Source: Gammaproteobacteria bacterium (GTDB lineage Bacteria; Pseudomonadota; Gammaproteobacteria; Eutrophobiales; Eutrophobiaceae). Taken from it: DNA of 64,000 nt. The stretch spans positions 5,092-69,091 of the forward strand of contig OZ271833.1 of NCBI GenBank assembly GCA_965601665.1, in the 5' to 3' direction. Made by a program: the position numbers and the translations under genes. The notes under the pieces were generated by a model. The model saw only the letters and a list, made by a program, of their open reading frames with translations. It was not told the origin of the DNA and ran no database searches. The number at the start of each line of letters is the position of its first letter. Within the stretch, counting starts at the first letter, position 1. Positions 927-29,288 of the stretch are shown here, one piece after another.

Positions 927-1403
927 CTAACCTTCGCTAATTTCATTCATATCAGGGGCAGTCTGCCAAATTCGATAATGCACTTCCGCTGCCTCCGGGA
1001 CATAGACGACAATGGGTAAACGGCTATTGTAACGCACCAGGAAGGGTTCCCCGCCAAGGCTTATAAATCGGTCTACCGATGCCGAATGGGGGTCAACAGC
1101 CATTAATGTGCCAATCATTTGACCAAGGTCAGGGACGATATAACGCGTATAGCCCCAGCCTTCGATGTTTTTCGATTCTATCTTGCCGGAAAAGAAATAG
1201 CGGTTTTGTGTGTCGGTTTTTACTGTCTTACCAATAATCAGTTCGACTTGATAGAGAGACTCGTCCTCCTGTTTTGGTAGTTCGAGGACATGCCTTGTCA
1301 TTCCCTGTGCGGCTTGCGGAAAGGCTTTCAAATTGTCTGCCGCATGTGCGGTCAGCATCGTAACGATCATCATGACCAGGGCGAATGTTATTTGTTTGTC
1401 CAT
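927..1403 (-). CDS. eco: ecotin, periplasmic serine-protease inhibitor
   Basis: 158 aa with signal peptide; matches E. coli ecotin, recalled from memory, along its length (PQAAQGM.RHV..LP.QEDES...VELIIGKT...GWGY..Y...RYNSRLPIVVYVP...V.YRIW). Confidence 0.9.
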   Translation of the reverse strand: MDKQITFALVMMIVTMLTAHAADNLKAFPQAAQGMTRHVLELPKQEDESLYQVELIIGKTVKTDTQNRYFFSGKIESKNIEGWGYTRYIVPDLGQMIGTLMAVDPHSASVDRFISLGGEPFLVRYNSRLPIVVYVPEAAEVHYRIWQTAPDMNEISEG

Positions 1404-1642
1404 GTTGGTTCCGTGTTTTAAAAGGTTAGTCCCGGGTTTGTTTTGTCAATCTTTCCTGTCCATCATACGTCTATCGGCTCTTGAAGTTAATAAGATACTG
1501 ATTTTAAATGTAAATACTCCTTGAAATAACGGCCGATTGTTGCTAAAGAATGATCAATATAGTCCGATAAAATACTAGTGGCTGCGCTTTACCAGAACAT
1601 GGATGTATGCCAGATTGTCAATCTTAAAAACAAATTGATTAC

Positions 1643-2899
1643 ATGTTTGTAAAAAACAAACCCGCGACGCTGGAAGGAACGAGAATCGGGCGCTACGATC
1701 TGAATAAAATCATTGGTAGCGGCACGTTTGGCGAAGTCTACAAGGCATTTGACCATGAACTGCGTAGGCACGTTGCAATAAAAGTACGTTCCGTGGACCT
1801 TGTTAATGGCAAATTTAACAAGGAATCGGTCATACGAGAGGCGCGTATACATGCCCTCGCCGAGCACTCCAATATTGTACCTGTGTATGACATCATCGAT
1901 TATAAAAAGTCAGTATTGATAGTCATGCGCCTCGTGAATGGTGGCGATCTGGACCAAATACTGGGCAACCAACGTCAACCGTTCAAGGTAAACCAGGCAT
2001 TAAAGATCATGCAAAAGATACTCTGGGCAATGGAGTATGCTCATAATCTGGGTATCGTTCATCTTGATCTCAAACCGGGTAATATCCGTATCAGTCTGAG
2101 TGGCGAAGTGCTCATTATGGATTTTGGTATTGCTACCTTTCTCGAAGAACAGTCCTTCCTGGACGGGAAACCGAACGGTACGCCGTCATATATGTCACCT
2201 GAGCATATCAATTGCGAGCATATGGATGCCCGCGCGGATATCTACTCTCTGGGCATTATTCTGTACAAGATGTTGACCGGCCGGCACCCGTTTACCAAGG
2301 CGAAAAATGTTAATGAAATGCTTAAAAGCCATCTGGAAACACCAGTTAGCAAACCTTCTGTTTTAGTTGACACAATACCGGACAAAGTTGATATGGTTTT
2401 GTTGAAGGCACTCGAAAAAAATCCACGTAAGCGCTTTCATTCCTGTCGAGAATTTGTGCAGGCACTTGAAAGGGCCGTGGGTATCGATACTGGCACTGAA
2501 GATATGGATAAGGAATTGCGCTGGGACCATCGCGCAGCCGTCACACTTAAAGTGCGAATTCAATGCCAGACTGATGCCGGTTTTATTTTTGCCGAAACAG
2601 TCAACCTGTCCGTTAGCGGCGCCAACTTGCGAGTAACATCCGACGTTGCAGTTGGCAGCCGGATCTTTCTCGAGTTTTACATCCCGTCAGATTCCGAGGA
2701 TGATTATTTAAAGGTGACGACCAACGCAACCGTACTATGGAAAGACATCAACCATGGCCAGGATGATATTTCTATTGGTGTCAGCTTCAATGATTTGCAG
2801 GACATGGAGCGTTACCGTATTAGTGTTTATGTACGTAATCGCATCATGGAAGGGGATATTGATGAATTACCTACTGAAAGAACAATGACGTATTCCTGA
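1643..2899 (+). CDS. Hanks-type Ser/Thr protein kinase fused to a C-terminal PilZ (c-di-GMP-binding) domain
   Basis: Glycine loop GSGTFGEV, VAIK lysine, catalytic loop HLDLKPGN (non-RD), DFG, SPE; C-terminal 120 aa carry the PilZ motifs RWDHR (RxxxR) and NLSVSG (D/NxSxxG). Confidence 0.8.
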   Translation: MFVKNKPATLEGTRIGRYDLNKIIGSGTFGEVYKAFDHELRRHVAIKVRSVDLVNGKFNKESVIREARIHALAEHSNIVPVYDIIDYKKSVLIVMRLVNGGDLDQILGNQRQPFKVNQALKIMQKILWAMEYAHNLGIVHLDLKPGNIRISLSGEVLIMDFGIATFLEEQSFLDGKPNGTPSYMSPEHINCEHMDARADIYSLGIILYKMLTGRHPFTKAKNVNEMLKSHLETPVSKPSVLVDTIPDKVDMVLLKALEKNPRKRFHSCREFVQALERAVGIDTGTEDMDKELRWDHRAAVTLKVRIQCQTDAGFIFAETVNLSVSGANLRVTSDVAVGSRIFLEFYIPSDSEDDYLKVTTNATVLWKDINHGQDDISIGVSFNDLQDMERYRISVYVRNRIMEGDIDELPTERTMTYS

Positions 2900-3200
2900 A
2901 AAACAGGCATATTCCGCAATTCCCTATCTAGCCTGCATCTCTTGATTTCTTGCCCTTGTAAAGAGCCCTTGACTTCAGCATTTAGCGAGGATAATTTAAG
3001 TTTAGATTGTTTCTAAATGTTTTATTAAAAATAGTAAAAACAATAAGTTATACATTTAGACGAGAGCGTAAATGGTGCAAAAACGCATACAATCTGAAGG
3101 GTAAATGTGAAAGTCAGTTTTATTGCTGCAAAATGCAACAAAATGCTTCCTTTGCCAGTTATTTCAATTAATGCATTGATTCTTAAACGATTTTATTACC

Positions 3201-3228
3201 TTGCATAAACAGGTTAAGGGTCTATAAT
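3201..3228 (+). promoter_or_regulatory. sigma70-type promoter TTGCAT-16-TATAAT for the small ORF at 3260
   Basis: ttgcat (3201-3206), 16-nt spacer, tataat (3223-3228), about 30 nt upstream of the ATG at 3260. Confidence 0.45.
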
Positions 3229-3259
3229 TTGTGCATTGCAACAATGGCCGTGATGTTTG

Positions 3260-3481
3260 ATGGATGCCAAAAGTCATATAAATACCGCTGAGCAACTCTC
3301 CGAGCTCAAGCAAAATATAGAGACGCTAATCTCTGATGTTCAGGATGTCAGGCTGGCGAATGAGCTAAGTAAACTTACCCAGGTAAGACTGGTTGATTTG
3401 CAATATTCTGCCAAGCTTGTCATTGAACAGTTAAAAGAGCACCTGGACGACGAGCAGGATGTCAGTAAAGATTGTGCCTGA
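3260..3481 (+). CDS. small helical protein of unknown function (73 aa)
   Basis: ORF with good upstream promoter; coiled-coil-like heptads; no recognisable domain (ORF track start 3257 is TTG; ATG at 3260). Confidence 0.35.
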   Translation: MDAKSHINTAEQLSELKQNIETLISDVQDVRLANELSKLTQVRLVDLQYSAKLVIEQLKEHLDDEQDVSKDCA

Positions 3482-3483
3482 GC

Positions 3484-4434
3484 TTATGCACTTTGCATAA
3501 GAAATTGATCATAACGTTTACAAAATTCATCCAGCATTTCAAAGTAAGATAAGGCGCCTGTTTCAAACACAGAAAATTGCCAATTGCTTTTCACTTGTAA
3601 CGTTTCTTTCCAGCAGTAGTTCGTGAAGTCTCCTCTTACGCCATGACTCATCCAGATTGGATGGGGCAGTGATTCGTAGATAGTATTAATATCCTGGCTA
3701 AACATAAAACCCGACAAAAAATAAAAGGGCGCATAGCATGCGCCGGGTTGCTTCGTCGATAGATACGAATATTCGTACATGACTTCGTCGATCTGCTTCG
3801 ACCCCCAGGTTTTTTGCAGGAAAAAACGCACGCTGCGACGGGATGTCAACAATGAGAATAGTGTCTCTCCGATGATGGAAAACCTAAGCACGCGCAGGAA
3901 GGCAGGCATGCCCCTGTTGCTTAAGGGTTCATCCTTGTATGGATATTGTTTATTAAAACCGGTAGGTGCTACGAATGCCAGGCTTTGGTAAGCGTCAGGT
4001 GATTCATGCGCTGCGCGTGCCAGGAATTCACAGGATGTCGAAACAGCGAGTGCATCGAGTGCCTTGCACTCATGATTTGACAGTATTCGGTTACAGATAG
4101 CGTGAACTGCATCAGTCATCAGGCGCGGAGTGTATTCTCGGTCGCTCCTTTCTGAAAAACCATAGCCAGGTAGGTCAATGGCATAAACAGGGCGCGTTTG
4201 ACGATAGTGCTCGTACAACGGCCTTATCTCATGCGCACCGGCAGCAGCATTAATAGTATGTATAAGTAATAGAGGCGTTGTATTCGCCGGGTTGTCGGGT
4301 GCGTCTGTGTAGTAACTAATGACGCCAGCGTCGGAGTCGAACGTCTCCCGTTTGCCCGGTAAAGCATGTTCAAGTGTCATGGTATTATGAAAACATGGCG
4401 TGGTCGCCAAGTTCCTGTCCGCTGTTACCTTCAT
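3484..4434 (-). CDS. alpha/beta-hydrolase fold protein (alternative start at 4380)
   Basis: 316-aa ORF; LLLIHTINAAAGAHE...YAIDLPGYGFSE is an alpha/beta-hydrolase N-terminal pattern; in apparent operon with the downstream NmrA-like gene (ATG at 4380 is 4 nt from its stop). Confidence 0.55.
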   Translation of the reverse strand: MKVTADRNLATTPCFHNTMTLEHALPGKRETFDSDAGVISYYTDAPDNPANTTPLLLIHTINAAAGAHEIRPLYEHYRQTRPVYAIDLPGYGFSERSDREYTPRLMTDAVHAICNRILSNHECKALDALAVSTSCEFLARAAHESPDAYQSLAFVAPTGFNKQYPYKDEPLSNRGMPAFLRVLRFSIIGETLFSLLTSRRSVRFFLQKTWGSKQIDEVMYEYSYLSTKQPGACYAPFYFLSGFMFSQDINTIYESLPHPIWMSHGVRGDFTNYCWKETLQVKSNWQFSVFETGALSYFEMLDEFCKRYDQFLMQSA

Positions 4435-5571: not shown

Positions 5572-6000
5572 ATGATGAAGGGATTGGTATACATTAGCAG
5601 GGCTACAACCCCTTTTTCGGCTGAAGAGCTGAAGGCATTGGCGAAGCAGGCAGCTGCGAGAAATAGAAAGCATCATATTACCGGTTATCTTTCTTACGAT
5701 AGTGAAGACAGATTTATTCAGTATATTGAGGGCGAAGAAGAAGAGGTACAGCAACTGTTTGATCTTGTCTTCCGTGATAACCGCCATCGTATCACGCATT
5801 ATCTTCGCCACGATATTGAGACAAGGAAATTTTCCAGCTGGAACATGCACTTGATCATAGACAATGAGTTCAAGGATATTCATGATCTGATGATGAATCA
5901 TTTATTTCACATAACTTCTGCGCCGAGTATGGTCAACTTCAAGAACAGGCTTATCTGGAACACGGTTGATGCACTTGCCGAGGCCAGTGCCGTTCAATAA
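5572..6000 (+). CDS. BLUF-domain blue-light FAD photoreceptor (short, stand-alone)
   Basis: LVYISRA...ITGYLSY...QYIEG...RDNRH are the hallmark BLUF motifs (conserved Tyr, Gln, and N/RH). Confidence 0.85.
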
Positions 6001-9904: not shown

Positions 9905-9981
9905 GCGCCTGTAGCTCAACTGGATAGAGTATCGGGCTTCGAACCCGAGGGTTGGGGGTTCGAGTCCCTCCGGGCGCGCCA
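9905..9981 (+). tRNA. tRNA-Arg (anticodon read as UCG), 77 nt including encoded CCA
   Basis: Manual cloverleaf: acceptor GCGCCTG/CGGGCGC, D-arm GCTC..GAGT with GG in loop, anticodon stem TCGGG/CCCGA, loop C-U-UCG-A-A, T-arm GGGGG-TTCGAGT-CCCTC, CCA. The anticodon assignment should be confirmed with tRNAscan-SE. Confidence 0.8.
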
Positions 9982-10146
9982 TCCATAAAACAAGCCACCG
10001 TCAGGTGGTTTTTTTTATGGATTAGTATTGGTGGGACGAGAACGAAGTTCGACAAATCGGCAGGACAGCCGATTTGGGCAGACGCAGTCTGCACGAAGTG
10101 CGAGCTACACGGATGTAGCGAGTCAATCCCTCCGGGCGCGCCAATC
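9937..10146 (+). repeat. 210-bp direct repeat copy 1 (tRNA 3' half from the anticodon loop, plus terminator and about 160 bp downstream; ends with a second 18-nt copy of the tRNA 3' end)
   Basis: identical to 11129..11338. Confidence 0.85.
9991..10016 (+). terminator. rho-independent terminator directly after the tRNA
   Basis: hairpin CCACC-GTCA-GGTGG followed by T8. Confidence 0.7.
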
Positions 10147-10191
10147 GATTAATCAATCGACACTGACCCTATTGATTATCACAGTAAATTC

Positions 10192-10875
10192 TTACGTAAA
10201 TCTATACCGAGAGATGAGACTAAGTAGTGCGGAGAAAAAAAATATTAAAGATGATGGCAAAGGAACGGGTGATACTTCTATACGCATTGCTAATTCAGTA
10301 GCTAGCCCAGAATTGATAGTCCATTCTTCGCCAACAAACCTTTGAGCTATATACTCATCACCACAAGTAGTACCACAGCTATAAGCTCTAAAGTCTTCTT
10401 GAGCAATACGCCAACTACTAAAACCATCGATGGTTTTATTTTCAGCGATGATCCAATATTTTTCGTTTTCATTTAGTAGTGTCGTGTTTGTCCAATGAAA
10501 TTCGTACAAGGGCCAAGGGAATATTTGTTCTATTGTTGTTGGAGAAGAAATTTCTAAAATCGAACCTGGACTATTGTTATTATCATTCCATATCGACAGC
10601 TCAATTTCACTTTCATTTAAAAAACTACTCTCTGTGAAAGGCGCAATGATCTTGTCTAAATAGCCAGAAGCGGTTGGTATAAATTGCATGCCTGCTTGAA
10701 ATGGAGATGCATTTTCGCGAAACCACTCTGTGCCAGGGCCTGCAACAGCAAAGCCTCCGCGTACAGGGTTCGGAATAGTTGTCATAGTATTATCAAACAC
10801 TACCAAAGCTGCATCTGCTTTGGACGAAAAAAGCAATAAGATTAAAAGAAACTTAAAGCTGTCTTTCGCTTTCAT
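10192..10875 (-). CDS. secreted protein with PEP-CTERM-like (VPLP-type) C-terminal sorting signal
   Basis: signal peptide; C-terminus PVPLPSSLIFFFSALLSLISRYRFT has a proline motif, a TM helix and a basic tail; AT-rich cassette between tRNA-half repeats. Confidence 0.5.
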   Translation of the reverse strand: MKAKDSFKFLLILLLFSSKADAALVVFDNTMTTIPNPVRGGFAVAGPGTEWFRENASPFQAGMQFIPTASGYLDKIIAPFTESSFLNESEIELSIWNDNNNSPGSILEISSPTTIEQIFPWPLYEFHWTNTTLLNENEKYWIIAENKTIDGFSSWRIAQEDFRAYSCGTTCGDEYIAQRFVGEEWTINSGLATELAMRIEVSPVPLPSSLIFFFSALLSLISRYRFT

Positions 10876-11128
10876 GACTTGAGCATTAATCTCATATAGA
10901 TATAAAAGATAAGCATAATCTAGCTGCGTGTCATAATTGTTACAAACTGAATTTTAATAACGCTAGAGTCGATGATTTCATGCTTATACTATTATCCGCT
11001 TCTGGCCGATTTTTGACAAAAACTATGCAGCTAGATTGTGACTTATTTAGGCTTACTGTAGCTTTTCTTATAATATTGCGAGCGTTGCAAGTAGTTGAAA
11101 GTAATAAGATTGACTAATATTAGTTCCC

Positions 11129-11338
11129 CTTCGAACCCGAGGGTTGGGGGTTCGAGTCCCTCCGGGCGCGCCATCCATAAAACAAGCCACCGTCAGGTGG
11201 TTTTTTTTATGGATTAGTATTGGTGGGACGAGAACGAAGTTCGACAAATCGGCAGGACAGCCGATTTGGGCAGACGCAGTCTGCACGAAGTGCGAGCTAC
11301 ACGGATGTAGCGAGTCAATCCCTCCGGGCGCGCCAATC
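11129..11338 (+). repeat. 210-bp direct repeat copy 2 (tRNA-Arg 3' half plus downstream block); att-like
   Basis: identical to 9937..10146; preceded by the conserved arm (about 11076..11128). Confidence 0.85.
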
Positions 11339-11512
11339 ATACCAAAAGTTTAATGTAGTCTTATCCACTTATCGTCAATGACATGGTGGTTTGGCTGAGT
11401 TTCGTCCCGTGTTACTAGCACGGGGCATCTTGGTGCTCTCAATCGCTCGTATCCTCGCTCTGAATCGCACTAGATGCATACGAGAAATAAACATAAAAAA
11501 CAGTATTATTGA

Positions 11513-12100
11513 TTAAGGCTTTACAATTAAATGACAAAATAATGAAACTCCATCATATATTCTTTCAACTACTATTTGTTTAGATAAGGCAGATTGATCT
11601 GGTATTAATGAATCTGGATCATAAATAAAGAAAATCAGATTTCTACATGTAGGGTTATGCCTATAAGTTTCAATATCATCATGAAGTTCTTTTGTTATAT
11701 TTTTTCCATGGGAAGCATCTCTTATATATTTTACTTCAATAATAGTTTTTGCAGATGGGCTAATGAAATCTTTTATGGTGAATCTATTTGCAACTTTATC
11801 GGTAGGATTTTCTGGTGTTAGATCAAGTACCCAAGGCCTGAGCATTATATACAAAGCGTCTTGCACTGCTGCTTCAGAATCAAGTGTAAGTACTGTTTTT
11901 GTACTCCTGCGAGTATTCAAATACCGTACAACTTCTTGAAATTGTTCAAGCGCTGCAATAATTTGTGAAGTCTTTACAGTTCCAGCTTCTTCAGCATTGG
12001 GTTCAGATGAATGCTTTTTTGACAGTGTTGAAACAGCATTAGCTAATGCTGGTAAAGTTGATATATCAATCATCATTATTGCCTGAAACATCTCTGCCAA
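11513..12100 (-). CDS. hypothetical protein with a candidate PD-(D/E)xK nuclease motif
   Basis: 195 aa; D(FISPSAKTII)EVK fits D-x10-E-x-K; overlaps the upstream gene by 35 nt (operon); AT-rich cassette. Confidence 0.4.
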   Translation of the reverse strand: MAEMFQAIMMIDISTLPALANAVSTLSKKHSSEPNAEEAGTVKTSQIIAALEQFQEVVRYLNTRRSTKTVLTLDSEAAVQDALYIMLRPWVLDLTPENPTDKVANRFTIKDFISPSAKTIIEVKYIRDASHGKNITKELHDDIETYRHNPTCRNLIFFIYDPDSLIPDQSALSKQIVVERIYDGVSLFCHLIVKP

Positions 12101-12752
12101 AAATATAGCGAGCTATATCTTCAAAAATATATTCATAATCTCTTCTGCTTTTGTTTTCAGGTAAATGAATATGTAAATCAATATGAAACTGCGGACTATT
12201 GTCTTGACCAGGTGGATTATTTAAACCTGTTGCTCCAGAGTTTTGAGTACTAGAGGAGTTTACAGGTGCTATGCTTGCTCCAAAATCAGCATAATCACAT
12301 ATAGCTTTGAAAGTAGATATTTGATATTGAATAGCTCTGTCGCTACCACCTGAATGAACATTAAAATAATTTTTTAACGTATCATCAGACTCTCTATGAG
12401 GTTCATGTGAATTCTCAAAAATCGGTGCCCAGCAATTTTTTATTCCTTGAGCTAATATGCCTGGCCCAGATTCTGGCATCATAAACTGCTTATATTGATC
12501 TGTAGGTTCACCAGTTGAAGTTAATAAACCAACATTTTTGATAACTCGAAGTATTGTTGCATCGTTTGAATTTCTTAAACCCCATGACTTCAATGTCTCT
12601 CCTGTGATTTTGGTGGGTTTAGGTTTGGTTGGTACTAACTCTAAAAACCTTCTCAATGAGTTTGGGACGGTTGTATATGGAAATTTCGGGGTTGATATGC
12701 TTTCAGAACTTTTACTCCTTGTTTTCTTTTTAGCTACTTTTTTCTTTGCCAT
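12066..12752 (-). CDS. hypothetical protein with Lys-rich N-terminus (MAKKKVAKKKTRSK), partner of the nuclease-like gene
   Basis: 228-aa ORF, no recognisable domain; co-oriented and overlapping with 11513..12100. Confidence 0.4.
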   Translation of the reverse strand: MAKKKVAKKKTRSKSSESISTPKFPYTTVPNSLRRFLELVPTKPKPTKITGETLKSWGLRNSNDATILRVIKNVGLLTSTGEPTDQYKQFMMPESGPGILAQGIKNCWAPIFENSHEPHRESDDTLKNYFNVHSGGSDRAIQYQISTFKAICDYADFGASIAPVNSSSTQNSGATGLNNPPGQDNSPQFHIDLHIHLPENKSRRDYEYIFEDIARYIFGRDVSGNNDD

Positions 12753-14919: not shown

Positions 14920-15058
14920 GACTCCATACGGAGAGTTATGTCATAAAGGAAGGCTGAGTCTATTGATATAAACAAAATAAGTCTGTACTACAGCTTGCAA
15001 AAAAAATGCCCGCGCTATTTGCATAGCGCGAGCATCTTCTTTAGTAGGTTAGTTATAA

Positions 15059-16381
15059 TTACTTGGCTGTAATCTTATAAATTTCACCTTCATCGGTGGA
15101 CGCATACAGCGCATTATCCGGACCCATTACAAGCCCACGAAACCGCTTGGAAAAGCCGAGTGGCATGCGGACAACACTTTTGATCGATAAACCATCAGCT
15201 GCGATGTCATACATATCAATACGCGAGCCGGCTGGCGTGTCGCCAAAAGCGATGCCCATGATGCCCGCAGTTAAACGACCTTCATAGATACCCCAGTTAC
15301 TGCCTGTCAGGAACGCGGCAGATCCCGTGCCTTGAGAAAAACCGTTGTTATTCCATGCAGGCGGCATTAAATCCTTGAAGCGTGTATCACTCATGGGGGT
15401 GTACGCGGCACGTACGGCGGGATCCATCGCATCCATCTGATTAGGCTCGTAGCCACAGTACTGGTCCGGGCATTCACCTCTACCGCCTCTCTTTTCTGCA
15501 GGATCCCAGCCTGCGTTACCACCATTTACCAGGGCGGTAATCTCGTCGTTATGCCAGGGCCCATGCTCGGAAGTAAACGCTCTGCCGTCGCCAGGACGGA
15601 AATCGATACCTTGTACGTTTCTATGACCATAAGTATAGATACGCTTATCAAAACCAGCAGGTGGCTTGTTGCCTGAATGTGCTTTGCCATTACCATCGAT
15701 TCTGAGTACCTTGCCACATAGTAAGGTACCGTCCTGCGGACATACTCCTCTATGGCGATCACCGCCGGTTACCCACAGGTATCCTTCAGGACCAAAACGT
15801 AACCTGCCGCCATTATGCGCACCGGGGCCACCAAAGGGCTGGTTCGATTCGAACGGCTTATACTGGATGTCTGTGACGATATCTGTGCGGTTAGATACTT
15901 TCTTAAGATCCTTACTAACCTTGAATCTCATAACAATGTTGCCGTTGCATTTTTCAAAATTCGTCTTGCATCCATCGCCATGATATTTGTTAGAGGTGGA
16001 GTAAACATAGAGTGTGCGGTTCTTGGCAAACCCAGGATCGGCTACCACGCCCAACATGCCGGCCTGGCCATCACAAAAAAGATCATTGCCTGAAGCTTTG
16101 TAACCTTTAGAACCTTTCATTCCGTAAAGTGCATTCACATCACCGGATGCAGTTCTTACTGAAAGACCCTTACATTTTTCAGTGTAAAACATGGTACCGT
16201 CGGGCAAGAAGGCCATATCCCATGGGTTATCAAGTCCTTCCATTACCGCCGTTGATTCAATGGTTGGTACATTCATACCTTTATTTGCGTGTTCCTCTGC
16301 ATTGGCATTGGATGCCAATCCGACCAACATCACAGCAGACGCCGTGACTGTCGACAAAACCTTAGTAAATGATGGATTCAT
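15059..16381 (-). CDS. soluble PQQ-dependent sugar (aldose/sorbosone) dehydrogenase, beta-propeller
   Basis: signal peptide; GLDNPWDMAFLPDGTMFYTEK and repeated propeller blades typical of the sGDH/YliI family. Confidence 0.7.
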   Translation of the reverse strand: MNPSFTKVLSTVTASAVMLVGLASNANAEEHANKGMNVPTIESTAVMEGLDNPWDMAFLPDGTMFYTEKCKGLSVRTASGDVNALYGMKGSKGYKASGNDLFCDGQAGMLGVVADPGFAKNRTLYVYSTSNKYHGDGCKTNFEKCNGNIVMRFKVSKDLKKVSNRTDIVTDIQYKPFESNQPFGGPGAHNGGRLRFGPEGYLWVTGGDRHRGVCPQDGTLLCGKVLRIDGNGKAHSGNKPPAGFDKRIYTYGHRNVQGIDFRPGDGRAFTSEHGPWHNDEITALVNGGNAGWDPAEKRGGRGECPDQYCGYEPNQMDAMDPAVRAAYTPMSDTRFKDLMPPAWNNNGFSQGTGSAAFLTGSNWGIYEGRLTAGIMGIAFGDTPAGSRIDMYDIAADGLSIKSVVRMPLGFSKRFRGLVMGPDNALYASTDEGEIYKITAK

Positions 16382-18366: not shown

Positions 18367-19416
18367 TTAATTTAACCCATCCATTATTCCATTCTTGTTC
18401 GCATTGATTGTTTTAAGATAGTCAGCGTAGCCCAGAAATTCCTTTTCGTAACACTCCAGTGCCTTACGCAAATCATTGTCAGCAATTATCGGAGATAATG
18501 CCCGCGCCAGCACGTTACAGTTCCATAAGCCGATAACAGGTTGCTCTCCAAACGCGTAGCGTCCTTTCTCATCATTACTGCTGCTCACAAAGTTCGTATC
18601 GTGGTTCTCGGTAAAACTTGCTTCACCAAGATCCAGCGTGATCCCCAGTATGGATTGATTATCGGTATTCATCATGCCATGCGTGAAGCCAACATGTTGC
18701 CAATGAGCAATCAAACGCGCGGTACGTTTAACAACCTCTGAAAAAAAGTCTGCGTACTTATTTTTTTCATCATGAATGCAGTCTGAATAATAATAGTGGA
18801 TGACATAATCTGTTAATTGTGTGAGTGCCGCAGTATTTCGTTGAAAATAATAATTCTCAAAAGTACCAAAACGAATGAAGCCTGGGGCGACACGCGTAAT
18901 GATGGCCGCAGGCTCAAATTGACCTCTATAAACCTGTTCCTTGCCCGATATAACGCACAGGCTATGTGTACATGGCACGCCGAGCTTGATTAATTGCTGG
19001 CTTAAGTCGAATTCTCGTAAGCAACCGCTCAAGCTGGCACGGCCGTCAAAGTCTCGTGAGTAAGGTGTTTGTCCTGCGCCTTTCAGATGACATTCCCAAA
19101 AACCGGTTTCATTTTCTGTATCGAATAACAATATGGCCCGGCCATCGCCGAGCATCGGGTTGAAGTTGCCTAGCTGATGGCCTGCATAATCCTGTGCTAA
19201 TGGTTTGCTATCAGGAATTATCTTGTTCCCGCTAAACACCTGTAGAAATAGATCTGACTCGGTTTCATCTGCCGATAACCCTAACAATGTTGCCGTAATT
19301 GAATTAACAGTTTCGAACTCAGGATCGGTTAAACCCTGTGGCTGGAATTCGCAGTAGAAATGGTCGCCGAGTGAATAAAAGCGGTTTTTTACCGTGAGGT
19401 CTGTGAAAGAACCCAT
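18367..19416 (-). CDS. SelO/YdiU-family protein adenylyltransferase homologue, C-terminally short (349 aa against about 480)
   Basis: PLAQDYAGHQLGNFNPMLGDGRAILL and GFTHGMMNTDNQSILGITLD match SelO kinase-like core; ends near the position equivalent to about aa 365 of E. coli YdiU. Confidence 0.65.
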   Translation of the reverse strand: MGSFTDLTVKNRFYSLGDHFYCEFQPQGLTDPEFETVNSITATLLGLSADETESDLFLQVFSGNKIIPDSKPLAQDYAGHQLGNFNPMLGDGRAILLFDTENETGFWECHLKGAGQTPYSRDFDGRASLSGCLREFDLSQQLIKLGVPCTHSLCVISGKEQVYRGQFEPAAIITRVAPGFIRFGTFENYYFQRNTAALTQLTDYVIHYYYSDCIHDEKNKYADFFSEVVKRTARLIAHWQHVGFTHGMMNTDNQSILGITLDLGEASFTENHDTNFVSSSNDEKGRYAFGEQPVIGLWNCNVLARALSPIIADNDLRKALECYEKEFLGYADYLKTINANKNGIMDGLN

Positions 19417-19451
19417 ATGAATTACATCTGCGTCCTGCGAAAGCTATATAA

Positions 19452-19482
19452 AAAAAGGCCCCGGATTACCGGGGCCTTTTCC
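19452..19482. terminator. bidirectional intrinsic terminator
   Basis: GGCCCCGG-atta-CCGGGGCC flanked by A-run and T-run, between convergent SelO-like and aldehyde dehydrogenase genes. Confidence 0.7.
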
Positions 19483-19496
19483 AGAGTGTTGAAGAC

Positions 19497-21017
19497 CTAG
19501 AAGAAACCCAGTGGATTGATGTCGTAACTTACCAACATATTTTTTGTCTGTTGGTAATGGTCAAGCATCATCTTGTGTGTTTCACGACCAACGCCAGACT
19601 TTTTGTAACCACCAAAGGCAGCGTGAGCTGGATACTGGTGATAGCAGTTCATCCAAACTCGACCAGCCTGAATACCCCTGCCCATACGATAGGCCCGGTT
19701 GGTATCACGGGTCCAGACGCCGGCACCAAGACCAAACTCGGTGTCATTGGCGATAGCCAGTGCTTCTGCCTCGTCCTTGAACGTCGTTACTGAAACGACA
19801 GGTCCGAAGATTTCTTCCTGGAAAACGCGCATCTTGTTGTTGCCTTTAAGGAGCGTCGGCTTGATATAAAACCCGTCACATTGTGCACCTTCCAGAGATT
19901 CAGCTTCACCGCCTACCAGTACCTGCGCACCTTCGTCTCGGCCGATCTTGATATAGTTGAGGATCTGGTCGAATTGTTCCTGGGAGGCCTGTGCGCCTAC
20001 CATGACATCGGTATCAAGCGGGTTACCCCGTTTGATATCGCCAATGCGTTTTACAACCAGCTCGATGAACTGTTCGTAGATTGATTCCTGCACCAGCATA
20101 CGTGATGGGCACGTGCACACTTCGCCCTGGTTAAAGAAAGCGAGTACTGCGCCCTCTACAGCCTTACTGACGAAATCGTCTTCCTGGTCCATGATATCTT
20201 CAAAGAATACGTTCGGTGATTTACCACCCAGCTCCACGGTAGAAGGAATGATATTGTCAGCAGCATATTTCATGATCATGGAGCCTACCGGCGTAGAGCC
20301 GGTGAAAGCGATCTTGCTGATACGCGTACTCGTAGCCAGCGCCTTACCTGCCTCAGCACCAAAACCGTTTACAATATTCAGCACACCTTTTGGTAACAGG
20401 TCACTGATCAATTCGGCAAGAACCAGAATTGATGCCGGGGTTTGTTCTGCCGGTTTCATGATAATGCAGTTGCCTGCTGCAAGCGCGGGCGCCAGCTTCC
20501 ACGCTGCCATCAATAGTGGAAAGTTCCAGGGAATGATTTGACCTACGACGCCCAACGGTTCATGAAAGTGATAGGCAACCGTATTTTCATCAATTTCACT
20601 TAGGGAGCCTTCCTGTGACCTTAAGCATCCTGCGAAATAGCGGAAGTGGTCTGCAGACAGCGGCACATCGGCGTTGAGTGTTTCTCGAATTGCCTTCCCG
20701 TTGTCCCATGTTTCGGCGACAGCCAGCTTTTCCAGGTTTTCATCGATTCGGTCAGCAATTTTCAACAGTATATTTGAACGTGCTGCAGGTGAGGTACTCG
20801 CCCATTCGTCTTTCACTGCATGTGCCGCATCAAGCGCTTGTTCGATATCTTCATCGGTTGAGCGAGGTATTTTACAAAAGGCCTTGCCATTTACAGGGGA
20901 TATATTGTCAAAATATTCTCCCTTGGCAGGGGCTACCCATTCACCACCAATAAAGTTGTCATATTGCGGTTTGAAATCCACTACCGCGCCGTCTGTATTT
21001 GGATCAGAATAAATCAT
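19497..21017 (-). CDS. NAD(P)-dependent aldehyde dehydrogenase (AldB-like)
   Basis: 506 aa; ALDH family catalytic region (ELGGKSP, conserved Cys in VCTCPSR context). Confidence 0.85.
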
Positions 21018-22510: not shown

Positions 22511-23098
22511 TTAACCCTTAACCGGTATACGAATCACGACGCCGCCCATGACATCGCCAAGTTTGAAATCACTCTTGGGCGTATCCTTGTGCTCGTTATG
22601 GCAACTGACACATACCGGTGCTACGGCGGGGTCAGCATAAACGGCAGTGAAATAAGTGGTACCACCAAGTTCTTCTACACCGTAGTAGTTCTCACCCTTG
22701 TTTTCGGCAACATAGGCAAGGCCAGCTTTTTCTACCTCCGTGCGTGGTGCATTTTGCTTGTTGATAGGCCACAACGATTGCAGCGAATAGGTGAACTGGT
22801 CGGTCTTTTTGGAAACTTCTTCAGCACCAAAACGGAACATCTGTGCCGGTAACACCAGTGCCTTGTCATCTTCGAAGTGTTCGCTGGCCTTGATGACCTT
22901 ATCTTTCTTGACTAGTCTGTTCACAATTTTTTTTGTGTAGACAGCGCGGTCAGTTGACATTACCAGGTGTAACCAGTCCGCCAATTGCTTGGGTGTGAAT
23001 GTAGGGGTTTCCGCGATTTCCGATGAAGCAGTTAGCGGTATAGCCAGAACTGCGACGATCGAACTCGTCAGTAACACTTTTTTTAGTCTAGACATCAT
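22511..23098 (-). CDS. periplasmic DUF3365 (Tll0287-like) PAS-like heme-c protein
   Basis: signal peptide; single CVSCH near the C-terminus; SLWPINKQNAPRTEVEKAGL and GDVMGGVVIRIPV resemble the DUF3365 signature (..SLKPRNP.N.PD.WE.. and ..GDLRGAISV.IP). Confidence 0.6.
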   Translation of the reverse strand: MMSRLKKVLLTSSIVAVLAIPLTASSEIAETPTFTPKQLADWLHLVMSTDRAVYTKKIVNRLVKKDKVIKASEHFEDDKALVLPAQMFRFGAEEVSKKTDQFTYSLQSLWPINKQNAPRTEVEKAGLAYVAENKGENYYGVEELGGTTYFTAVYADPAVAPVCVSCHNEHKDTPKSDFKLGDVMGGVVIRIPVKG

Positions 23099-23129
23099 AC
23101 TTCTCCTGTAGAAATGACAGTATTACGGT

Positions 23130-24566
23130 TTAAAACAATTCATTATTTTGCTGTTCACGAAGACGCTTTTTCTTTTCCTCTGCCTCAATCATCCGAACCT
23201 CGGCCATATCCATGCTTTCAATATGCACCGATGGTTGTCCGGAAAAATTATTTTTAATCAGTGCCAGATCAGCGAGTGCATCGATACTGAAGCCAAGGCT
23301 ATGGCAGTCCATGCAAACAGGTCTGATCATCTTTTCATTCGGTTTAAGCGTATCGTTCTGGTTATGCTGAACGATGCCCATATAAAACATGCCGTCCATG
23401 AATTCCTTTTCTATCCGTGGCATATGACAGGTAGCGCAGGTGACACCACTGTGTTCCGGTAGCTCGCCAACCTGTTCCTTTTTCCAGAGCTCGTGGTGCG
23501 GGGAATCGATATACGCCAGGCTATGTTCATCATTATGGCAACCCAGGCAGGCATCGATGGATGCGATTTTCGTATCGTAATCATGAGCACCATGACAGCT
23601 GTTGCAGGTTAGCTCCTCGTGTTTTGCGTCCTTTTTCATTGGCAGTTTTGCCATGGCAGGTGTCATGGGTGAAAGGTCGCGCTCCAGTTTTTCCACATCG
23701 AGACGCATACCGTGTTTACCTATGAGAAAGCCATCAACTTCTGGTGTGTGACAAGTTGCACAGGCCTTGTGGTCTGGCTTGTTCACCCAGACCGTTTCTT
23801 CCTCGATAGTTTGCTGATGGCAGGCATTACAATTCACACCGCTGTTGGCATGTGCAGTGTCGTACCAGGAATGGACGATCTCTATATCTACATCGATGTC
23901 CTGTGGGTAAACGGCTTCAACCAGTTTCAACCTCTCCAGTGGATAGTCCCTGCTGGGATAGTCGGGCAATACTGCTGCGTATTCAGCCAGGTTCAAATCA
24001 GGAGGTAGTTCCTGTCTATCCAGTATGTCGGGTTTATGCAGATGCTTGACCAGATAGTCTTCATACAGCGCCTGGTTGTCGTGATAATTGTGACAGCCGG
24101 CTGATGCACAGGTATCAAAGGCCATCCCTTCGTGGCTGGGTCTTTCCTTGGCAATGTCGTTGTGGCAAAGGTTGCAATAGTCCGGTGGCATGGTCAGGCC
24201 CATGTCCTGTGTGATTTCAGGATTGTGCTCCACGTGACAGGTGACGCAGTAGCGGGCGTCGAGTATTTCTACCCGGTCGGCATTCCTTGGATCGGTAAAT
24301 TTACTCTTTGGATGTTTATCCTTGTTTTCTTTCAATGCATCGCCATGGCAATTCATGCAGGCATTTTGTATCGCTTCTTCATCGGCGAACGATTCGCTAT
24401 GGCAGGCATTGCAGGCGAGTTCAATCTGGTGATGGCCATGGGTGGTTTCACCAGGAAGGAAAATGCTTTTATCTGCTGCCTTGTTATTAATCTTCATTAC
24501 CAGGTACGTTGTTAATGCAATCGTTAATAAAATCCATGTCAGCCATAGCCACGTGTTTCTTTTCAC
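23130..24566 (-). CDS. membrane-anchored multiheme c-type cytochrome (10 CxxCH plus one CX4CH-like CASAGCH)
   Basis: N-terminal TM anchor, then CNACH, CMNCH, CVTCH, CNLCH, CASAGCH, CNACH, CATCH, CNSCH, CLGCH, CATCH, CMDCH. Confidence 0.85.
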   Translation of the reverse strand: MKRNTWLWLTWILLTIALTTYLVMKINNKAADKSIFLPGETTHGHHQIELACNACHSESFADEEAIQNACMNCHGDALKENKDKHPKSKFTDPRNADRVEILDARYCVTCHVEHNPEITQDMGLTMPPDYCNLCHNDIAKERPSHEGMAFDTCASAGCHNYHDNQALYEDYLVKHLHKPDILDRQELPPDLNLAEYAAVLPDYPSRDYPLERLKLVEAVYPQDIDVDIEIVHSWYDTAHANSGVNCNACHQQTIEEETVWVNKPDHKACATCHTPEVDGFLIGKHGMRLDVEKLERDLSPMTPAMAKLPMKKDAKHEELTCNSCHGAHDYDTKIASIDACLGCHNDEHSLAYIDSPHHELWKKEQVGELPEHSGVTCATCHMPRIEKEFMDGMFYMGIVQHNQNDTLKPNEKMIRPVCMDCHSLGFSIDALADLALIKNNFSGQPSVHIESMDMAEVRMIEAEEKKKRLREQQNNELF

Positions 24567-24588
24567 CTAACTTGAATCCTTTCAATGC

Positions 24589-26604
24589 CTAGAAGTAATA
24601 GGTTTTGAAGATGTGAAAACCAAGCAAAACGGGGATTGGCCAGAACAACAGGATATGCAACCAGTTACCAAGGCTTCGAACCTGTCTGACTGTCCTGGCT
24701 TCCAGTTTGTGTTCAAGCGCTATGACCGAACCAACCACGGTGCCCACCAGTAGCAGCGCGGTAAAACTCATCATCAACAGGAAATTAATGTTGTCGCCAA
24801 GGCGAAAGCCGGTATGCACGAGTAAAGCAAAGATCGCAGAACCGCCTAACAAGGCATGCAGCAGTCTCCAGATTGGAAAGTCACCCCAACTGAACCATTT
24901 AATTCGTTTGCGCAATGAAAGGATTAACACCAACGTGGTCATGCCCAGTAGCGTAAAGCCGCTGATTTGTTTAAACAGGCTATCTGTCCACAGCATGTCC
25001 CAGCGCCAGGGAACCTGTACGGTGCTGTTATACGGCACCGCGGGTAACAGGTAGGCAATAGCACACATGATGAAAATTACTGCCGAGCCATACCACAAGG
25101 GTTTCCATGCCCTGACAGGTTCGATATCTTTCTGGCCCAGCATGTTAACCAGCAAAGGTTTGCATGACCCGCATACCGTCGATGCGCCTGTTTTTTCAGC
25201 CAGCGCCTGTACCGTGCTGCATCCGTTCTCAATCTCCTTAGCTAGATAGCCGCGGGACAGGCCATTGCAGGAACAAATGGTTGCCTCGGCTGGCCAAAGG
25301 TTTACTTCTTCAAGACTGTCACTGTCCCACAGCTCGCCAGTTTCAACGAAGTGTTTTAGTTGCCAGGGGAAGAGTAATTTGCCTTTCTTTACATGTTCTT
25401 TAAGTTGAATCAGCTCGGCCCATTCACCAATGGCGATCACGCCGAGCAGCTGACCACGATATACATTCAGGCGTCGATAGAGTTTGTCCTTTTGGAAAAT
25501 ATACTGCGTGTAGGTACGCGTGCTTTCGTCAACGTCGCCCATGCTAAATACTGGCAGACCAACAACTTTAAGGCTGGTTGCCAGTACCGTGCCCTTGTAC
25601 TTACTGGGTATACTGGCGATATTGCGGGCAGCAATGCCTGCCTGTTCAAAACCGGGCGCAACAATGCCGTACACTTCGCCCAGGTGTTCACAACATTCAC
25701 CAATAGCATAAATATCGGGATCGCTGGTCTGCATACTGTCATTGACCTTGATGCCACGACCAAAGGCCAGTTTTGACTGCCTGGCCAATTCAATGTTGGG
25801 TCGAATCCCGGTTGACACAATAAGCGTGTCGCAATGAATGGTTTCTCCAGATCGCAGTTCTATTGATCGGATTCGGTTTTCACTATCACCGTGTATCGCT
25901 TTGACACTATCTTGCAGATAGACATGAATACCCATGCTAATGACGTGCTGTTTGAATAGCTCTGCGGCTGTTTCATCAAGTTGACGGAACATTAAATAGC
26001 GGTTGTGTTCGATGACACTGACATCAGTACTATATCTTTGCATTGCCCTGGCTGCTTCCAGGCCAAGTAGCCCGCCACCCAGCACAACGGTACGGCGACT
26101 GCGGACGCGGCGCGCGATGAGTTTTTCTGCATCATCCATGCTGCGAAACTGGTAGATGCCTTCGAGATCGATGCCTGGTATTTCAGGAATGAATGGACTG
26201 GAACCAGTAGCAAGGATTAGTTGCTCGTATTCCTGTACATTGCCATATTCATCCTCAATAAGTTTGTTCTCACGGTCTATGCGCTCTACACGGCAATTAA
26301 AACGCTGGATGAGTAGACTTGAATCAGTATTCGCACCGGTAATGACGATGTCTTCGTGGTTTACCTCACCGGCAAGCAAAGACGATAACCTCACACGGTT
26401 GTAAGGGACCCATGATTCATCACCATAAATAACGACAGGTTGCCCGGTTGAATAATCAAGCAACTCACTGACGAAACGCATACCAACCGGGCCACTGCCA
26501 ATGATGACAATGGGCTTTTGGCCATTCATAAGAATGCTTTCCGCTTGTCTTGTATCCAGTTTTAATGCTGTATTCACAATTTTCTGACCCAAAAAAAACG
26601 CCAC
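24589..26604 (-). CDS. fusion of a NirB-type FAD/NAD(P)H oxidoreductase, a BFD-like [2Fe-2S] domain and a C-terminal 5-TM di-heme-b (ferric-reductase-like) membrane domain
   Basis: IVIIGSGPVGMRF dinucleotide fold, GGGLLGLEAA second Rossmann, CSCNG...CGSCKP BFD motif, then 5 predicted TM helices with His pairs H-x13-H in two helices (LLHALLGGSAIFALLVH; WLHILLFWPIPVLLGFH). Confidence 0.75.
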   Translation of the reverse strand: MAFFLGQKIVNTALKLDTRQAESILMNGQKPIVIIGSGPVGMRFVSELLDYSTGQPVVIYGDESWVPYNRVRLSSLLAGEVNHEDIVITGANTDSSLLIQRFNCRVERIDRENKLIEDEYGNVQEYEQLILATGSSPFIPEIPGIDLEGIYQFRSMDDAEKLIARRVRSRRTVVLGGGLLGLEAARAMQRYSTDVSVIEHNRYLMFRQLDETAAELFKQHVISMGIHVYLQDSVKAIHGDSENRIRSIELRSGETIHCDTLIVSTGIRPNIELARQSKLAFGRGIKVNDSMQTSDPDIYAIGECCEHLGEVYGIVAPGFEQAGIAARNIASIPSKYKGTVLATSLKVVGLPVFSMGDVDESTRTYTQYIFQKDKLYRRLNVYRGQLLGVIAIGEWAELIQLKEHVKKGKLLFPWQLKHFVETGELWDSDSLEEVNLWPAEATICSCNGLSRGYLAKEIENGCSTVQALAEKTGASTVCGSCKPLLVNMLGQKDIEPVRAWKPLWYGSAVIFIMCAIAYLLPAVPYNSTVQVPWRWDMLWTDSLFKQISGFTLLGMTTLVLILSLRKRIKWFSWGDFPIWRLLHALLGGSAIFALLVHTGFRLGDNINFLLMMSFTALLLVGTVVGSVIALEHKLEARTVRQVRSLGNWLHILLFWPIPVLLGFHIFKTYYF

Positions 26605-27228
26605 AAGTCAATTGATAGCCAATCAACCATGTGACGCCTTTGTCCCTTAAATAATCGAGTAACTAAAACGTTACTGTTTCTACATATATCAATCCCGCCA
26701 TTAGGATCGCTAATTAGTTTGCAGAATTTATGCCATTAACTCATTCCCGTTTAAGTAATTGTTTTTCATGTAAATGAAAAATTTGTTATGTGCGTAAGCA
26801 GTATTTTTCTGCACTGTTTTGATTAACGCTGCATCATTATTGAACAAGACGAGTCTGCAAACGTGCTGCCAGTTTGACTTAATAATAAAAATGACAAGCA
26901 CAAAAATGCACATGTTTTTATCTGACCATTACTCTTTAACCTTCTACAACAAAATTTTAAGCCTGAAGTTGACCATGCATTAGCGTTAATAACGTGTTGT
27001 TGAAAATGTTTGGCACTTAAATCGGGCAAACAGGTTTAATTACGTTCTATTGTTGTGCATGACAAACTGGTCTTATTAAGGTTTGAAAATAAAAAATACA
27101 GGAATATCAGCTTGATATAATGTTGGCCTGGAATTTGCTGATTAGGATTACAAAACGTGGGAGTAATTATTTATTGCCCAGCGTTAAGTTGATTACAAAG
27201 GCGTAGTCACCGTATTGAATTGGTAAAG

Positions 27229-27268
27229 GAGCCACGCACAGCGTCATGTCTGTGCTGGCTTTTTTTTT
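27229..27268 (+). terminator. intrinsic terminator in the leader of the porin gene (candidate NasT/ANTAR-controlled attenuator)
   Basis: AGCCA-CGCACAG-cgtcatgt-CTGTG-CTGGCT followed by T9, 25 nt before the porin start; no upstream + strand gene to terminate. Confidence 0.6.
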
Positions 27269-27293
27269 GCTTTTTAAAAATGGGAGAACTTAA

Positions 27294-28565: not shown

Positions 28566-28593
28566 TTAGTGACCGGGTAAACCGTTCTGTCAT

Positions 28594-28630: not shown

Positions 28631-28676
28631 AATCAATATAAATATACTGTGCGTTTTTCATTCACGAATTACCTGT

Positions 28677-29273: not shown

Positions 29274-29288
29274 AAACCGGAAATTAGC

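Follow-up and report, generated by a model that had tools for sequence, protein, structure and literature searches.

[quoted passage not shown] PknB-like Ser/Thr kinases typically sense through transmembrane and extracellular regions, and PknB autophosphorylates a conserved Thr pair of its activation loop. In the literature searched, the only characterised protein found to combine such a kinase with a PilZ domain is Pkn1 (MXAN_1467) of Myxococcus xanthus, which, like the protein described here, carries an N-terminal Ser/Thr kinase and a C-terminal PilZ in one polypeptide. [quoted passage not shown] The architecture is thus not new, and the remark in a preliminary description of this locus that no characterised example was known has to be withdrawn. 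The kinase-PilZ family described here has intact c-di-GMP motifs, unlike Pkn1. For c-di-GMP control of any Hanks-type kinase our search returned only the Pkn1 papers; it covered few subscription journals, so this absence is weak evidence.

The gene lies at positions 1643..2899 of the + strand of the window, by which we mean the whole 64-kb stretch of DNA that was analysed; the features described within the gene are on the same strand. In the list of open reading frames it encodes 418 amino acids, from an ATG start to a stop codon at 2897-2899, and the start Met is the same in full-length relatives of 95-34% identity. The preliminary description had read this frame as a kinase fused to a PilZ domain, which both Pfam profiles bear out (Pkinase 191.5 bits, PilZ 38.7 bits), and translation recovers in place every motif that it named (G-loop, VAIK, HLDLKPGN, DFG, SPE, RWDHR and NLSVSG). 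The Kyte-Doolittle mean reaches a maximum of 1.31 over any 19-residue window of the protein, and by this measure no transmembrane-like segment is present in the 418 residues. Because no such window exceeds 1.31, we take the protein to be soluble. We consider it reasonably probable that its product is a Hanks-type Ser/Thr kinase, soluble, cytoplasmic and stand-alone, with a canonical PilZ c-di-GMP receptor as its sensor module; a protein of this composition would probably link the second messenger of biofilm formation and motility to protein phosphorylation.

The catalytic domain spans residues 18-278 (1694..2476), on the evidence of Pfam, the nearest solved sequences and the AlphaFold kinase fold. 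The Pfam match (PF00069; residues 18-269, E 2.4e-56) covers profile positions 1-255 of 263 and lies far above the gathering score of 31.7. The nearest solved sequences are M. tuberculosis PknE, PknB and PknA together with pneumococcal StkP (E 1e-41 to 1e-34), and the NCBIfam model of Stk1/PknB PASTA kinases (NF033483) matches nothing beyond the kinase domain and gives 257 bits, short of its equivalog cut-off of 450. We evaluated conservation in an alignment of 38 full-length relatives (95-35% identity) and in a further 13 representatives at 30-41% identity. In the glycine-rich ATP loop GSGTFGEV (residues 25-32; 1715..1738), G25 and G27 are present in 38/38 relatives and G30 in 31/38. Lys47 of the VAIK motif (residues 44-47; 1772..1783), which anchors ATP, and its salt-bridge partner E66 are found in all 38, as are H140, D142, K144 and N147 of the catalytic loop HLDLKPGN (residues 140-147; 2060..2083) and D160, F161, G162, P186 and E187 of the activation segment, which runs from DFG to SPE (residues 160-187; 2120..2203). 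R264 is likewise invariant in the 38 sequences. The profile match, the ATP-binding residues, the catalytic loop and the DFG and APE elements thus all conform to a Hanks-type kinase, and the only replacement is that of the HRD arginine.

That replacement makes the enzyme a non-RD kinase, with Leu141 in place of the Arg. Among the 38 closer relatives position 141 is L in 28, S in 5, Q in 3 and K in 2, and R in none; HRD is kept in 3/13 of the more divergent representatives. Loss of the HRD Arg marks active non-RD kinases, not pseudokinases, and the preliminary description's view that the catalytic signatures are complete agrees with the invariance of the catalytic residues (38/38). Judged by its residues, the domain is a catalytically complete, non-RD kinase rather than a non-kinase. 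The activation segment is acidic (LEEQ). No conserved Ser/Thr was found in the middle of the loop in the 38-sequence alignment, where positions vary, and the sole conserved hydroxyl residue of the segment is T180 in the GTP motif. Together, the non-RD loop and an acidic activation loop without a conserved phospho-acceptor suggest that the kinase probably needs no phosphorylation of that loop, and the PilZ module would then be left as its main regulatory input. This argument holds for the 38 closer relatives and not for the whole superfamily, as 3 of the 13 divergent relatives are RD kinases.

The PilZ domain comprises residues 293-403 (2519..2851), a β-barrel followed by a long C-terminal α-helix. 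Pfam PilZ (PF07238) matches residues 293-392 (E 1.4e-9; gathering score 22.5) over profile positions 3-95 of 102. Residue 293 aligns to profile position 3, and by these coordinates RWDHR would fall on the N-terminal Arg motif of the profile. This first c-di-GMP motif, of the form RxxxR, occupies residues 293-297 (2519..2533) at the junction of linker and barrel, and the second, NLSVSG, of the form [D/N]hSxxG, occupies residues 321-326 (2603..2620); 23 residues separate them. Both had been recognised in the preliminary description, and both persist in orthologues: R293, R297, S323 and G326 are present in 38/38 relatives. W294 is equally invariant, and D295 is found in 35/38, with N in the other 3. 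Position 321 is N in 31 sequences, D in 4 and S in 3, and Ser at this position is compatible with binding in PA2989. A canonical PilZ needs a hydrophobic residue at the 'h' position (Galperin and Chou); here position 322 is L in 26, I in 11 and V in 1, and so hydrophobic in all 38. Among the 13 more divergent representatives, R-W-[DNH]-P-R occurs in 12 and R293 with R297 in 13, and the combined catalytic and PilZ motif pattern is likewise retained in 12.

Canonical PilZ domains are told apart from xPilZ by a six-stranded β-barrel followed by a long C-terminal α-helix. In the present case the profile threshold is exceeded, RxxxR stands at the N-terminal edge, [D/N]hSxxG follows, and barrel and helix are both predicted. 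The motifs by themselves are weak evidence, because the pattern RxxxR-(15-35)-[DN]xSxxG occurs by chance once more among the six-frame ORFs of the window, in an unrelated ORF of 896 aa. We regard the PilZ assignment as secure because profile score, predicted fold and conservation support it. A phmmer search of the domain against PDB sequences gave no meaningful match, the best being a chance match to Csm4 (E 0.38). Foldseek with the domain-only model returned PilZ structures as all of its best 42 PDB matches and as every significant neighbour, including MotI/DgrA 5vx6 (E 3.8e-5), BcsA 4p00, Alg44 4rt0, PlzD 2rde and YcgR 5y6g. Most of these PilZ matches were solved with c-di-GMP bound, and identity to solved PilZ domains is only 10-20%.

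The full-length AlphaFold model (pLDDT 84.3, pTM 0.85) lays out a kinase fold with pLDDT mostly above 85, a disordered linker leading into RxxxR, the β-barrel and the C-terminal helix. The PilZ strands and the helix (residues 387-403; 2801-2851) appear in both the full-length and the domain-only models. The interdomain linker, VGIDTGTEDMDKEL (residues 279-292, 14 residues; 2477..2518), is predicted to be disordered, with pLDDT below 50 at residues 284-293 of the full-length model, and it is the least constrained segment of the protein (pN 0.17). A second disordered segment, the C-terminal tail GDIDELPTERTMTYS (residues 404-418; 2852..2896), has pLDDT below 50 in both models. The tail carries the clade-specific motif [DE][DE]LP[ST][ED][RK]TxT[FY], in which T414 is present in 27/27 of the tail-bearing sequences; compared over 13 codons with that of the 86% orthologue it has a single non-synonymous difference, and it is missing in more distant clades. 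In this conserved tail (…ELPTERTMTY) we see a candidate site of autophosphorylation or docking.

Clustering at 50% identity divides the family into about 13 groups, most of them from uncultured Gammaproteobacteria. The close relatives all come from uncultured organisms, so work would start from recombinant protein. Two of the proteins lie on contigs of equal length (2,852,178 bp), a hint that a genome may carry two paralogues. Orthologues are kept at 95, 86, 83, 82 and 73% identity. Comparison with the 86% orthologue gives pN 0.079 and pS 0.79, a pN/pS of about 0.10 overall; this ratio was used instead of dN/dS because synonymous sites are saturated. The PilZ domain (pN 0.064, pN/pS 0.076) is constrained at least as strongly as the kinase domain in this comparison. 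By these sequence measures both domains are under strong purifying selection, and the family extends down to about 30% identity. A search of 50,697 phage and 72,556 plasmid records found no full-length match to the protein, and every phage or plasmid match that was found lacks a PilZ match. One plasmid match (H5, Variovorax) with 80% query coverage was rejected, as it is a 1,346-aa kinase-cyclase-NTPase-TPR protein without PilZ. A contig search with the family alignment, for which the kinase peptides were over-general, returned 80 ordinary kinases aligned over residues 1 to ~330 and no member of the fusion family.

Upstream, the gene shares a 239-bp intergenic region (1404..1642) with a divergent ecotin gene (927..1403, - strand). 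From ORF layout and sequence we presume this region to hold the promoter; a consensus scan of it found no convincing + strand sigma-70 site, and a promoter and terminator consensus scan around the kinase-PilZ gene gave nothing above shuffle expectation. The preliminary description took ecotin to be unrelated, and this stands: the gene is indeed ecotin (Pfam Ecotin 149 bits), and it is missing upstream of the 86% orthologue's gene. Its observation that no phosphatase or FHA gene adjoins the kinase can be widened, since neither signature, nor any of GGDEF/EAL (diguanylate cyclase, phosphodiesterase), was found in the whole window. Across eight family neighbourhoods no common partner, phosphatase or FHA gene was found, and the neighbours are housekeeping genes. 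Downstream, a 74-aa ORF (3257..3481) has no Pfam or PADLOC match and is 68% identical in the 86% orthologue's locus; it was rejected as a family-wide partner, being unrelated to the small ORFs beside distant members. On the sequence evidence the kinase-PilZ gene stands alone, without a conserved neighbour. GGDEF genes do lie within 6 kb of two other family members, one of which (L089) is also near a YcgR-like PilZ gene; these neighbours indicate that the genomes of those two members use c-di-GMP.

These data allow us to propose how the protein may work. The PilZ module would stand in for the transmembrane and extracellular sensor of PknB-like kinases. The ligand would be held between NLSVSG on the barrel and RWDHR, which ends the short flexible linker that follows immediately on the last kinase helix. 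In the manner of other two-domain PilZ proteins, binding would order this 'switch' linker and could reposition the barrel and the charged C-terminal helix against the kinase C-lobe, with a consequent rise or fall in kinase output, whether in catalytic activity or in substrate access. This interdomain mechanism is proposed by analogy and from the pTM. A non-RD kinase without a conserved activation-loop phospho-site fits allosteric control by c-di-GMP, and the substrates would be encoded elsewhere than at this locus. In its most specific form, which we put forward tentatively, c-di-GMP could bind PilZ and directly switch catalysis of the non-RD kinase, the RWDxR linker acting as allosteric hinge and the Thr-rich tail as phospho-docking site.

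Other readings of the architecture bear on this proposal. The PilZ domain might serve as a ligand-independent adaptor for protein interaction or localisation, with the kinase regulated otherwise and c-di-GMP not involved; this is suspected for Pkn1 and has been reported for PlpA. The presence of the motifs does not guarantee c-di-GMP binding: PlpA carries them yet is reported not to bind. Pkn1 functions in development without them, and proteins are known to interact through the charged C-terminal PilZ helix, for example in MapZ-CheR. An adaptor would, however, have no reason to keep R293, R297, S323, G326 and the hydrophobic 'h' invariant from 95% to about 30% identity, and PilZ lineages that stop binding c-di-GMP typically lose these motifs. 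We therefore judge the adaptor reading unlikely. Less probable again is the reverse logic, in which the kinase would phosphorylate its own PilZ or tail, or other PilZ proteins, and so tune c-di-GMP binding or effector output. The invariant T414 in the disordered tail near the PilZ helix would suit such a role, and a kinase with this non-RD, acidic activation loop may be constitutively competent; against this, distant clades without the tail still keep both domains and all motifs, and no precedent was found in the literature searched.

A role in anti-phage defence, as a single-gene kinase of the PD-T4-6, Stk2 or MADS type, is very improbable. It is suggested by PADLOC scores (PD-T4-6 models up to 256 bits, mad6 230 bits), by 158 bits to NCBIfam MAD6 and by a DpnII-type restriction enzyme gene about 9 kb away. 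A Hanks-type kinase domain is what our protein has in common with PD-T4-6 and MADS Mad6, and the matches are limited to that domain and score no better than generic PknB. The NCBIfam scores fall well below cut-off (MAD6 158 against 460; PglW of BREX 75 against 990), and the PADLOC PD-T4-6 models also flag the core PASTA kinase of every S. thermophilus genome (PMC11514479). We consequently rejected the PD-T4-6 and mad6 matches as defence evidence, being confined to the kinase domain and drawn from non-specific models. The graded series of orthologues under strong purifying selection, the housekeeping neighbours without defence-island context and the lack of full-length matches in the phage and plasmid records also speak against defence. 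The least probable reading is a pseudokinase or scaffold in which PilZ alone is functional. The Leu that replaces the HRD arginine and the third G-loop glycine, variable in 7/38 sequences, would be its support; the phosphotransfer residues K47, E66, D142, K144, N147, D160 and the APE Glu are nevertheless all invariant, and loss of the HRD Arg is a mark of active non-RD kinases.

Should c-di-GMP regulate the kinase as we favour, this would directly join two major currencies of bacterial signalling and be the first direct wire from c-di-GMP to bacterial Ser/Thr phosphorylation to be demonstrated. A new class of c-di-GMP outputs could then come to light through phosphoproteomics of these marine Gammaproteobacteria. 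The family offers a small (~420 aa), soluble, single-gene test case with intact ligand motifs, and if there is no binding, the strict conservation of RWDxR and NxSxxG itself calls for explanation.

Set beside Pkn1, compared here by description only, the family differs in that both PilZ motifs are invariant, whereas those of Pkn1 are degenerate, and in lineage, Pkn1 belonging to the Myxococcota and the present family mostly to uncultured Gammaproteobacteria. With the myxobacterial PilZ paralogue model TIGR02266 (cut-off 68.7) the PilZ domain reaches only 33.6 bits. The catalytic domain most resembles the receptor kinases PknB, PknE and StkP and has all Hanks subdomain signatures, but the protein lacks a transmembrane helix, PASTA repeats or another extracellular sensor and has H-L-D in place of their H-R-D catalytic loop; its activation loop is shorter than that of PknB and without the conserved Thr pair. 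As in BcsA, Alg44, PixB, MotI/DgrA and YcgR/PlzD, the flexible segment that bears RxxxR is located at the barrel's N-terminal edge, beside the partner domain. From canonical PilZ effectors the family is set apart by its own form of the motif, RWDxR, with an invariant Trp and a near-invariant Asp. The logic that it shares with these proteins is that of a c-di-GMP receptor which is joined to an enzymatic or mechanical output or acts on one.

The kinase-PilZ gene is an ORF of 418 codons in the ORF list (window 1643-2899, + strand), and both of its Pfam domains score above their gathering scores: a kinase domain at residues 18-269 (191.5 bits versus 31.7) and a PilZ domain at residues 293-392 (38.7 bits, E 1.4e-9, versus 22.5). 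The fusion proposed in the preliminary description is therefore real. Translation of the exact coordinates recovered every kinase and PilZ motif that it had named, all on the + strand: GSGTFGEV (1715-1738), VAIK (1772-1783), HLDLKPGN (2060-2083), DFG…SPE (2120-2203), RWDHR (2519-2533) and NLSVSG (2603-2620). The PilZ motifs alone are weak proof, because the bare pattern occurs once by chance in another, unrelated ORF of the window; the PilZ assignment rests on profile score, fold and conservation.

A full-length AlphaFold2 model, computed from 38 family sequences, was confident (mean pLDDT 84.3, pTM 0.85). In this model the kinase fold extends to residue 278, residues 284-293 are disordered and lead into RWDHR, the β-barrel spans residues 303-382 and is followed by a long helix (387-403), and the C-terminal tail (406-418) is disordered. 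When residues 285-418 were modelled on their own (pLDDT 80.5) and the result was compared with the PDB using Foldseek, the best 42 matches were all PilZ domains, the majority of them c-di-GMP-bound structures. These matches included MotI/DgrA (5vx6; E 3.8e-5, TM 0.64), BcsA (4p00), P. aeruginosa PilZ (4xrn), Alg44 (4rt0), PlzD (2rde), YcgR (5y6g), PlzA, MrkH and MapZ; sequence search alone with the window PilZ domain reached none of the PilZ structures in the PDB. Canonical PilZ domains are set apart from divergent xPilZ domains by the barrel and C-terminal helix (bioRxiv 10.1101/814665). Judged from sequence and model, the window domain is canonical, with intact binding motifs, and is predicted to bind c-di-GMP. 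The kinase domain, which is catalytically complete in its residues, is closest to the mycobacterial PknE, PknB and PknA and pneumococcal StkP. Unlike these, the window protein has no hydrophobic segment (maximum Kyte-Doolittle 19-residue mean 1.31); it is therefore a cytoplasmic, soluble kinase whose sole accessory domain is PilZ.

A search of 5.8 billion proteins yielded ~45 that carry both Pfam domains and are 397-458 aa long, with identities to the window protein from 95% down to 34%. Nearly all are of metagenome or MAG origin, the names on their records are limited to 'Gammaproteobacteria bacterium' and 'serine/threonine protein kinase', and the family has so far been found in uncultured bacteria only. 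Alignment of 38 of these relatives showed that K47, E66, H140, D142, K144, N147, D160-F161-G162, P186-E187 and R264 of the kinase domain are invariant, as are R293, W294, R297, S323 and G326 of the PilZ domain. The first position of NLSVSG is Asn in 31 sequences, Asp in 4 and Ser in 3, and its hydrophobic position is Leu, Ile or Val throughout (38/38). When 1.84 billion representatives were searched with a profile of PilZ alone, 6,233 PilZ proteins matched at E ≤ 0.001. Among the best 150 of these, 13 full-length kinase-PilZ clusters (50% identity level) were recognised with a local kinase HMM, alongside 3 further fragments carrying the kinase; the remaining close PilZ relatives were chiefly short proteins with two PilZ domains. 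R-W-[DNH]-P-R, [DN]xSxxG and all catalytic residues were kept in 12 of the 13 clusters. The PilZ motifs, whose loss in orthologues would have told against the preliminary description, are thus clearly conserved. Comparison with the 86% orthologue gave a pN of 0.079 and a pS of 0.79 overall, with a pN of 0.064 for PilZ, 0.081 for the kinase and 0.17 for the linker. Both domains are under purifying selection, PilZ being constrained at least as strongly as the kinase and the linker being the least constrained segment. The contig recorded for P0125, from the 95%-identity cluster, is 2,852,178 bp long, as is that of P0039, a family member of 40% identity. This points to two divergent paralogues in some genomes; the window holds no second copy.

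As described previously, an ecotin gene lies upstream (divergent; Pfam 149 bits). Among the loci examined, no PP2C phosphatase, FHA protein or any other gene recurs beside family members. Downstream follow a 357-bp AT-rich spacer (window 2900-3256; GC ~0.37 in the 3001-3500 bin) with no Rfam match or consensus terminator, a 74-aa ORF (3257-3481, +) and a convergent α/β-hydrolase. The 74-aa ORF looks helical or coiled-coil, has no Pfam or PADLOC match and is not related to the small ORFs next to distant members of the family. The 86% orthologue has a 72-aa ORF in the equivalent downstream position (locus L081, 9620-9838), with which the 74-aa ORF shares 68% identity; it is therefore likely to be a genuine gene, specific to the lineage. 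That locus also keeps the α/β-hydrolase and, further downstream, a BLUF gene (14988-15416), which in the orthologous loci lies ~5.7 kb downstream of the kinase, its upstream side being recA-recX-alaS-lysC-csrA, unlike the window. In the window, a stand-alone BLUF blue-light sensor of 142 aa (5572-6000, +; Pfam 86 bits) is encoded downstream of the kinase, at a distance of ~2.7 kb. In some bacteria, c-di-GMP phosphodiesterases are under the control of short BLUF proteins, and a functional link here is conceivable but unsupported. More distant family members have entirely different neighbours; GGDEF genes lie ≤6 kb from two of the family, with a YcgR-like PilZ gene near one of these, and the 64-kb window contains no GGDEF, EAL or HD-GYP signatures. 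No neighbour recurs across loci; the kinase-PilZ gene thus stands alone as a signalling gene, and its partners act in trans.

The window's other genes are housekeeping. A SelO (protein adenylyltransferase) and aldehyde dehydrogenase pair (18367-21017, -), ~15.5 kb from the kinase, is also found on a metagenomic contig (L092, 9300-11911) ~2 kb from a 44%-identity family member; the arrangement could be a remnant of synteny that insertions broke up in the lineage of the window. Window 9905-12752 may be a small tRNA-associated island, comprising a tRNA-Arg (TCG) gene (9905-9981) and, after it, a 227-aa ORF that matches no Pfam family (10192-10875), a gene for a restriction endonuclease of the DpnII/MboI type (11513-12100, -) and one for a DUF5343 protein (12066-12752, -). 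A cluster of redox and nitrate-assimilation genes (22511-41969) includes a multihaem cytochrome c (23130-24566), a nitrite-reductase-like flavoprotein (24589-26604), an ANTAR response regulator (28677-29273), two NMT1_2 nitrate-binding-type proteins and an ABC permease and ATPase; to all appearances this is routine metabolism with no connection to the kinase.

The catalytic loop of the window kinase reads H-L-D in place of H-R-D. Across the alignment residue 141 is Leu (28), Ser (5), Gln (3) or Lys (2) and never Arg (0/38); of 13 representatives that are more divergent, 3 have an RD loop. The activation loop is acidic (LEEQ), and apart from the structural Thr in its GTP motif it has no conserved hydroxyl residue. 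In general kinase biochemistry, non-RD kinases are not known to depend on phosphorylation of their activation loop. By analogy, the PilZ module would be the source of kinase regulation: c-di-GMP would be clamped between NLSVSG and the first binding motif, RWDHR, which lies in the short flexible linker; the bound ligand would order this linker, and the barrel with its charged helix would then be repositioned on the kinase C-lobe. In two-domain PilZ proteins, RxxxR motifs carried on a linker work by such ordering and repositioning (bioRxiv 10.1101/814665). The invariant Trp294 and near-invariant Asp295 within RxxxR are not required by the canonical motif and may mark a family-specific contact. 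The disordered tail (window 2852-2896, +; residues 404-418) carries the motif [DE][DE]LP[ST][ED][RK]TxT[FY], with T414 present in 27/27 tail-bearing members, and is clade-specific, being missing from more distant clades. We speculate that it may serve as an autophosphorylation or phospho-Thr docking site.

The PilZ domain could alternatively be a ligand-independent adaptor, as suspected for Pkn1 (Myxococcus xanthus MXAN_1467) and reported for PlpA, but such a role is hard to square with ligand-contact residues invariant across such divergence, and we consider it unlikely though worth keeping in view. The reverse logic, whereby the protein's PilZ domain or tail is modified by its own kinase, seems a good deal less probable than not, at long odds. 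A pseudokinase has scarcely any probability, being ruled out by the invariance of the catalytic residues. It is very improbable that the protein is an anti-phage defence kinase: the PADLOC PD-T4-6 and mad6 models do match it, but only over the kinase domain and with scores like generic PknB, and PADLOC defence-kinase models also flag core PASTA kinases (PMC11514479). The protein also falls far under the cut-offs of the NCBIfam defence equivalogs, and collections of 50,697 phage and 72,556 plasmid records held no full-length match. One apparent match at 80% coverage was a different kinase of 1,346 aa, not a family member.

Taken together, the results support the preliminary interpretation in part: the fusion and its motif conservation hold, and gating of the kinase by c-di-GMP is a candidate function. 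The novelty suggested in the preliminary description was overstated, as the architecture is already on record in Pkn1 and among the PilZ fusion proteins listed by Galperin and Chou (bioRxiv 10.1101/814665). Our literature search, in which coverage of subscription journals was thin, found no report of c-di-GMP control of a Hanks-type kinase. The protein is a clean candidate for direct coupling of c-di-GMP to Ser/Thr phosphorylation, albeit one that joins two very well-known domains in a recorded architecture. The family is best placed among the PilZ-output fusion proteins, an established class, and has the architecture of Pkn1; the window PilZ domain scores under the cut-off of the myxobacterial PilZ model TIGR02266. 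Four features set the family apart from Pkn1: its ligand motifs are intact, its catalytic loop is mostly non-RD, its linker is very short and its tail is conserved.
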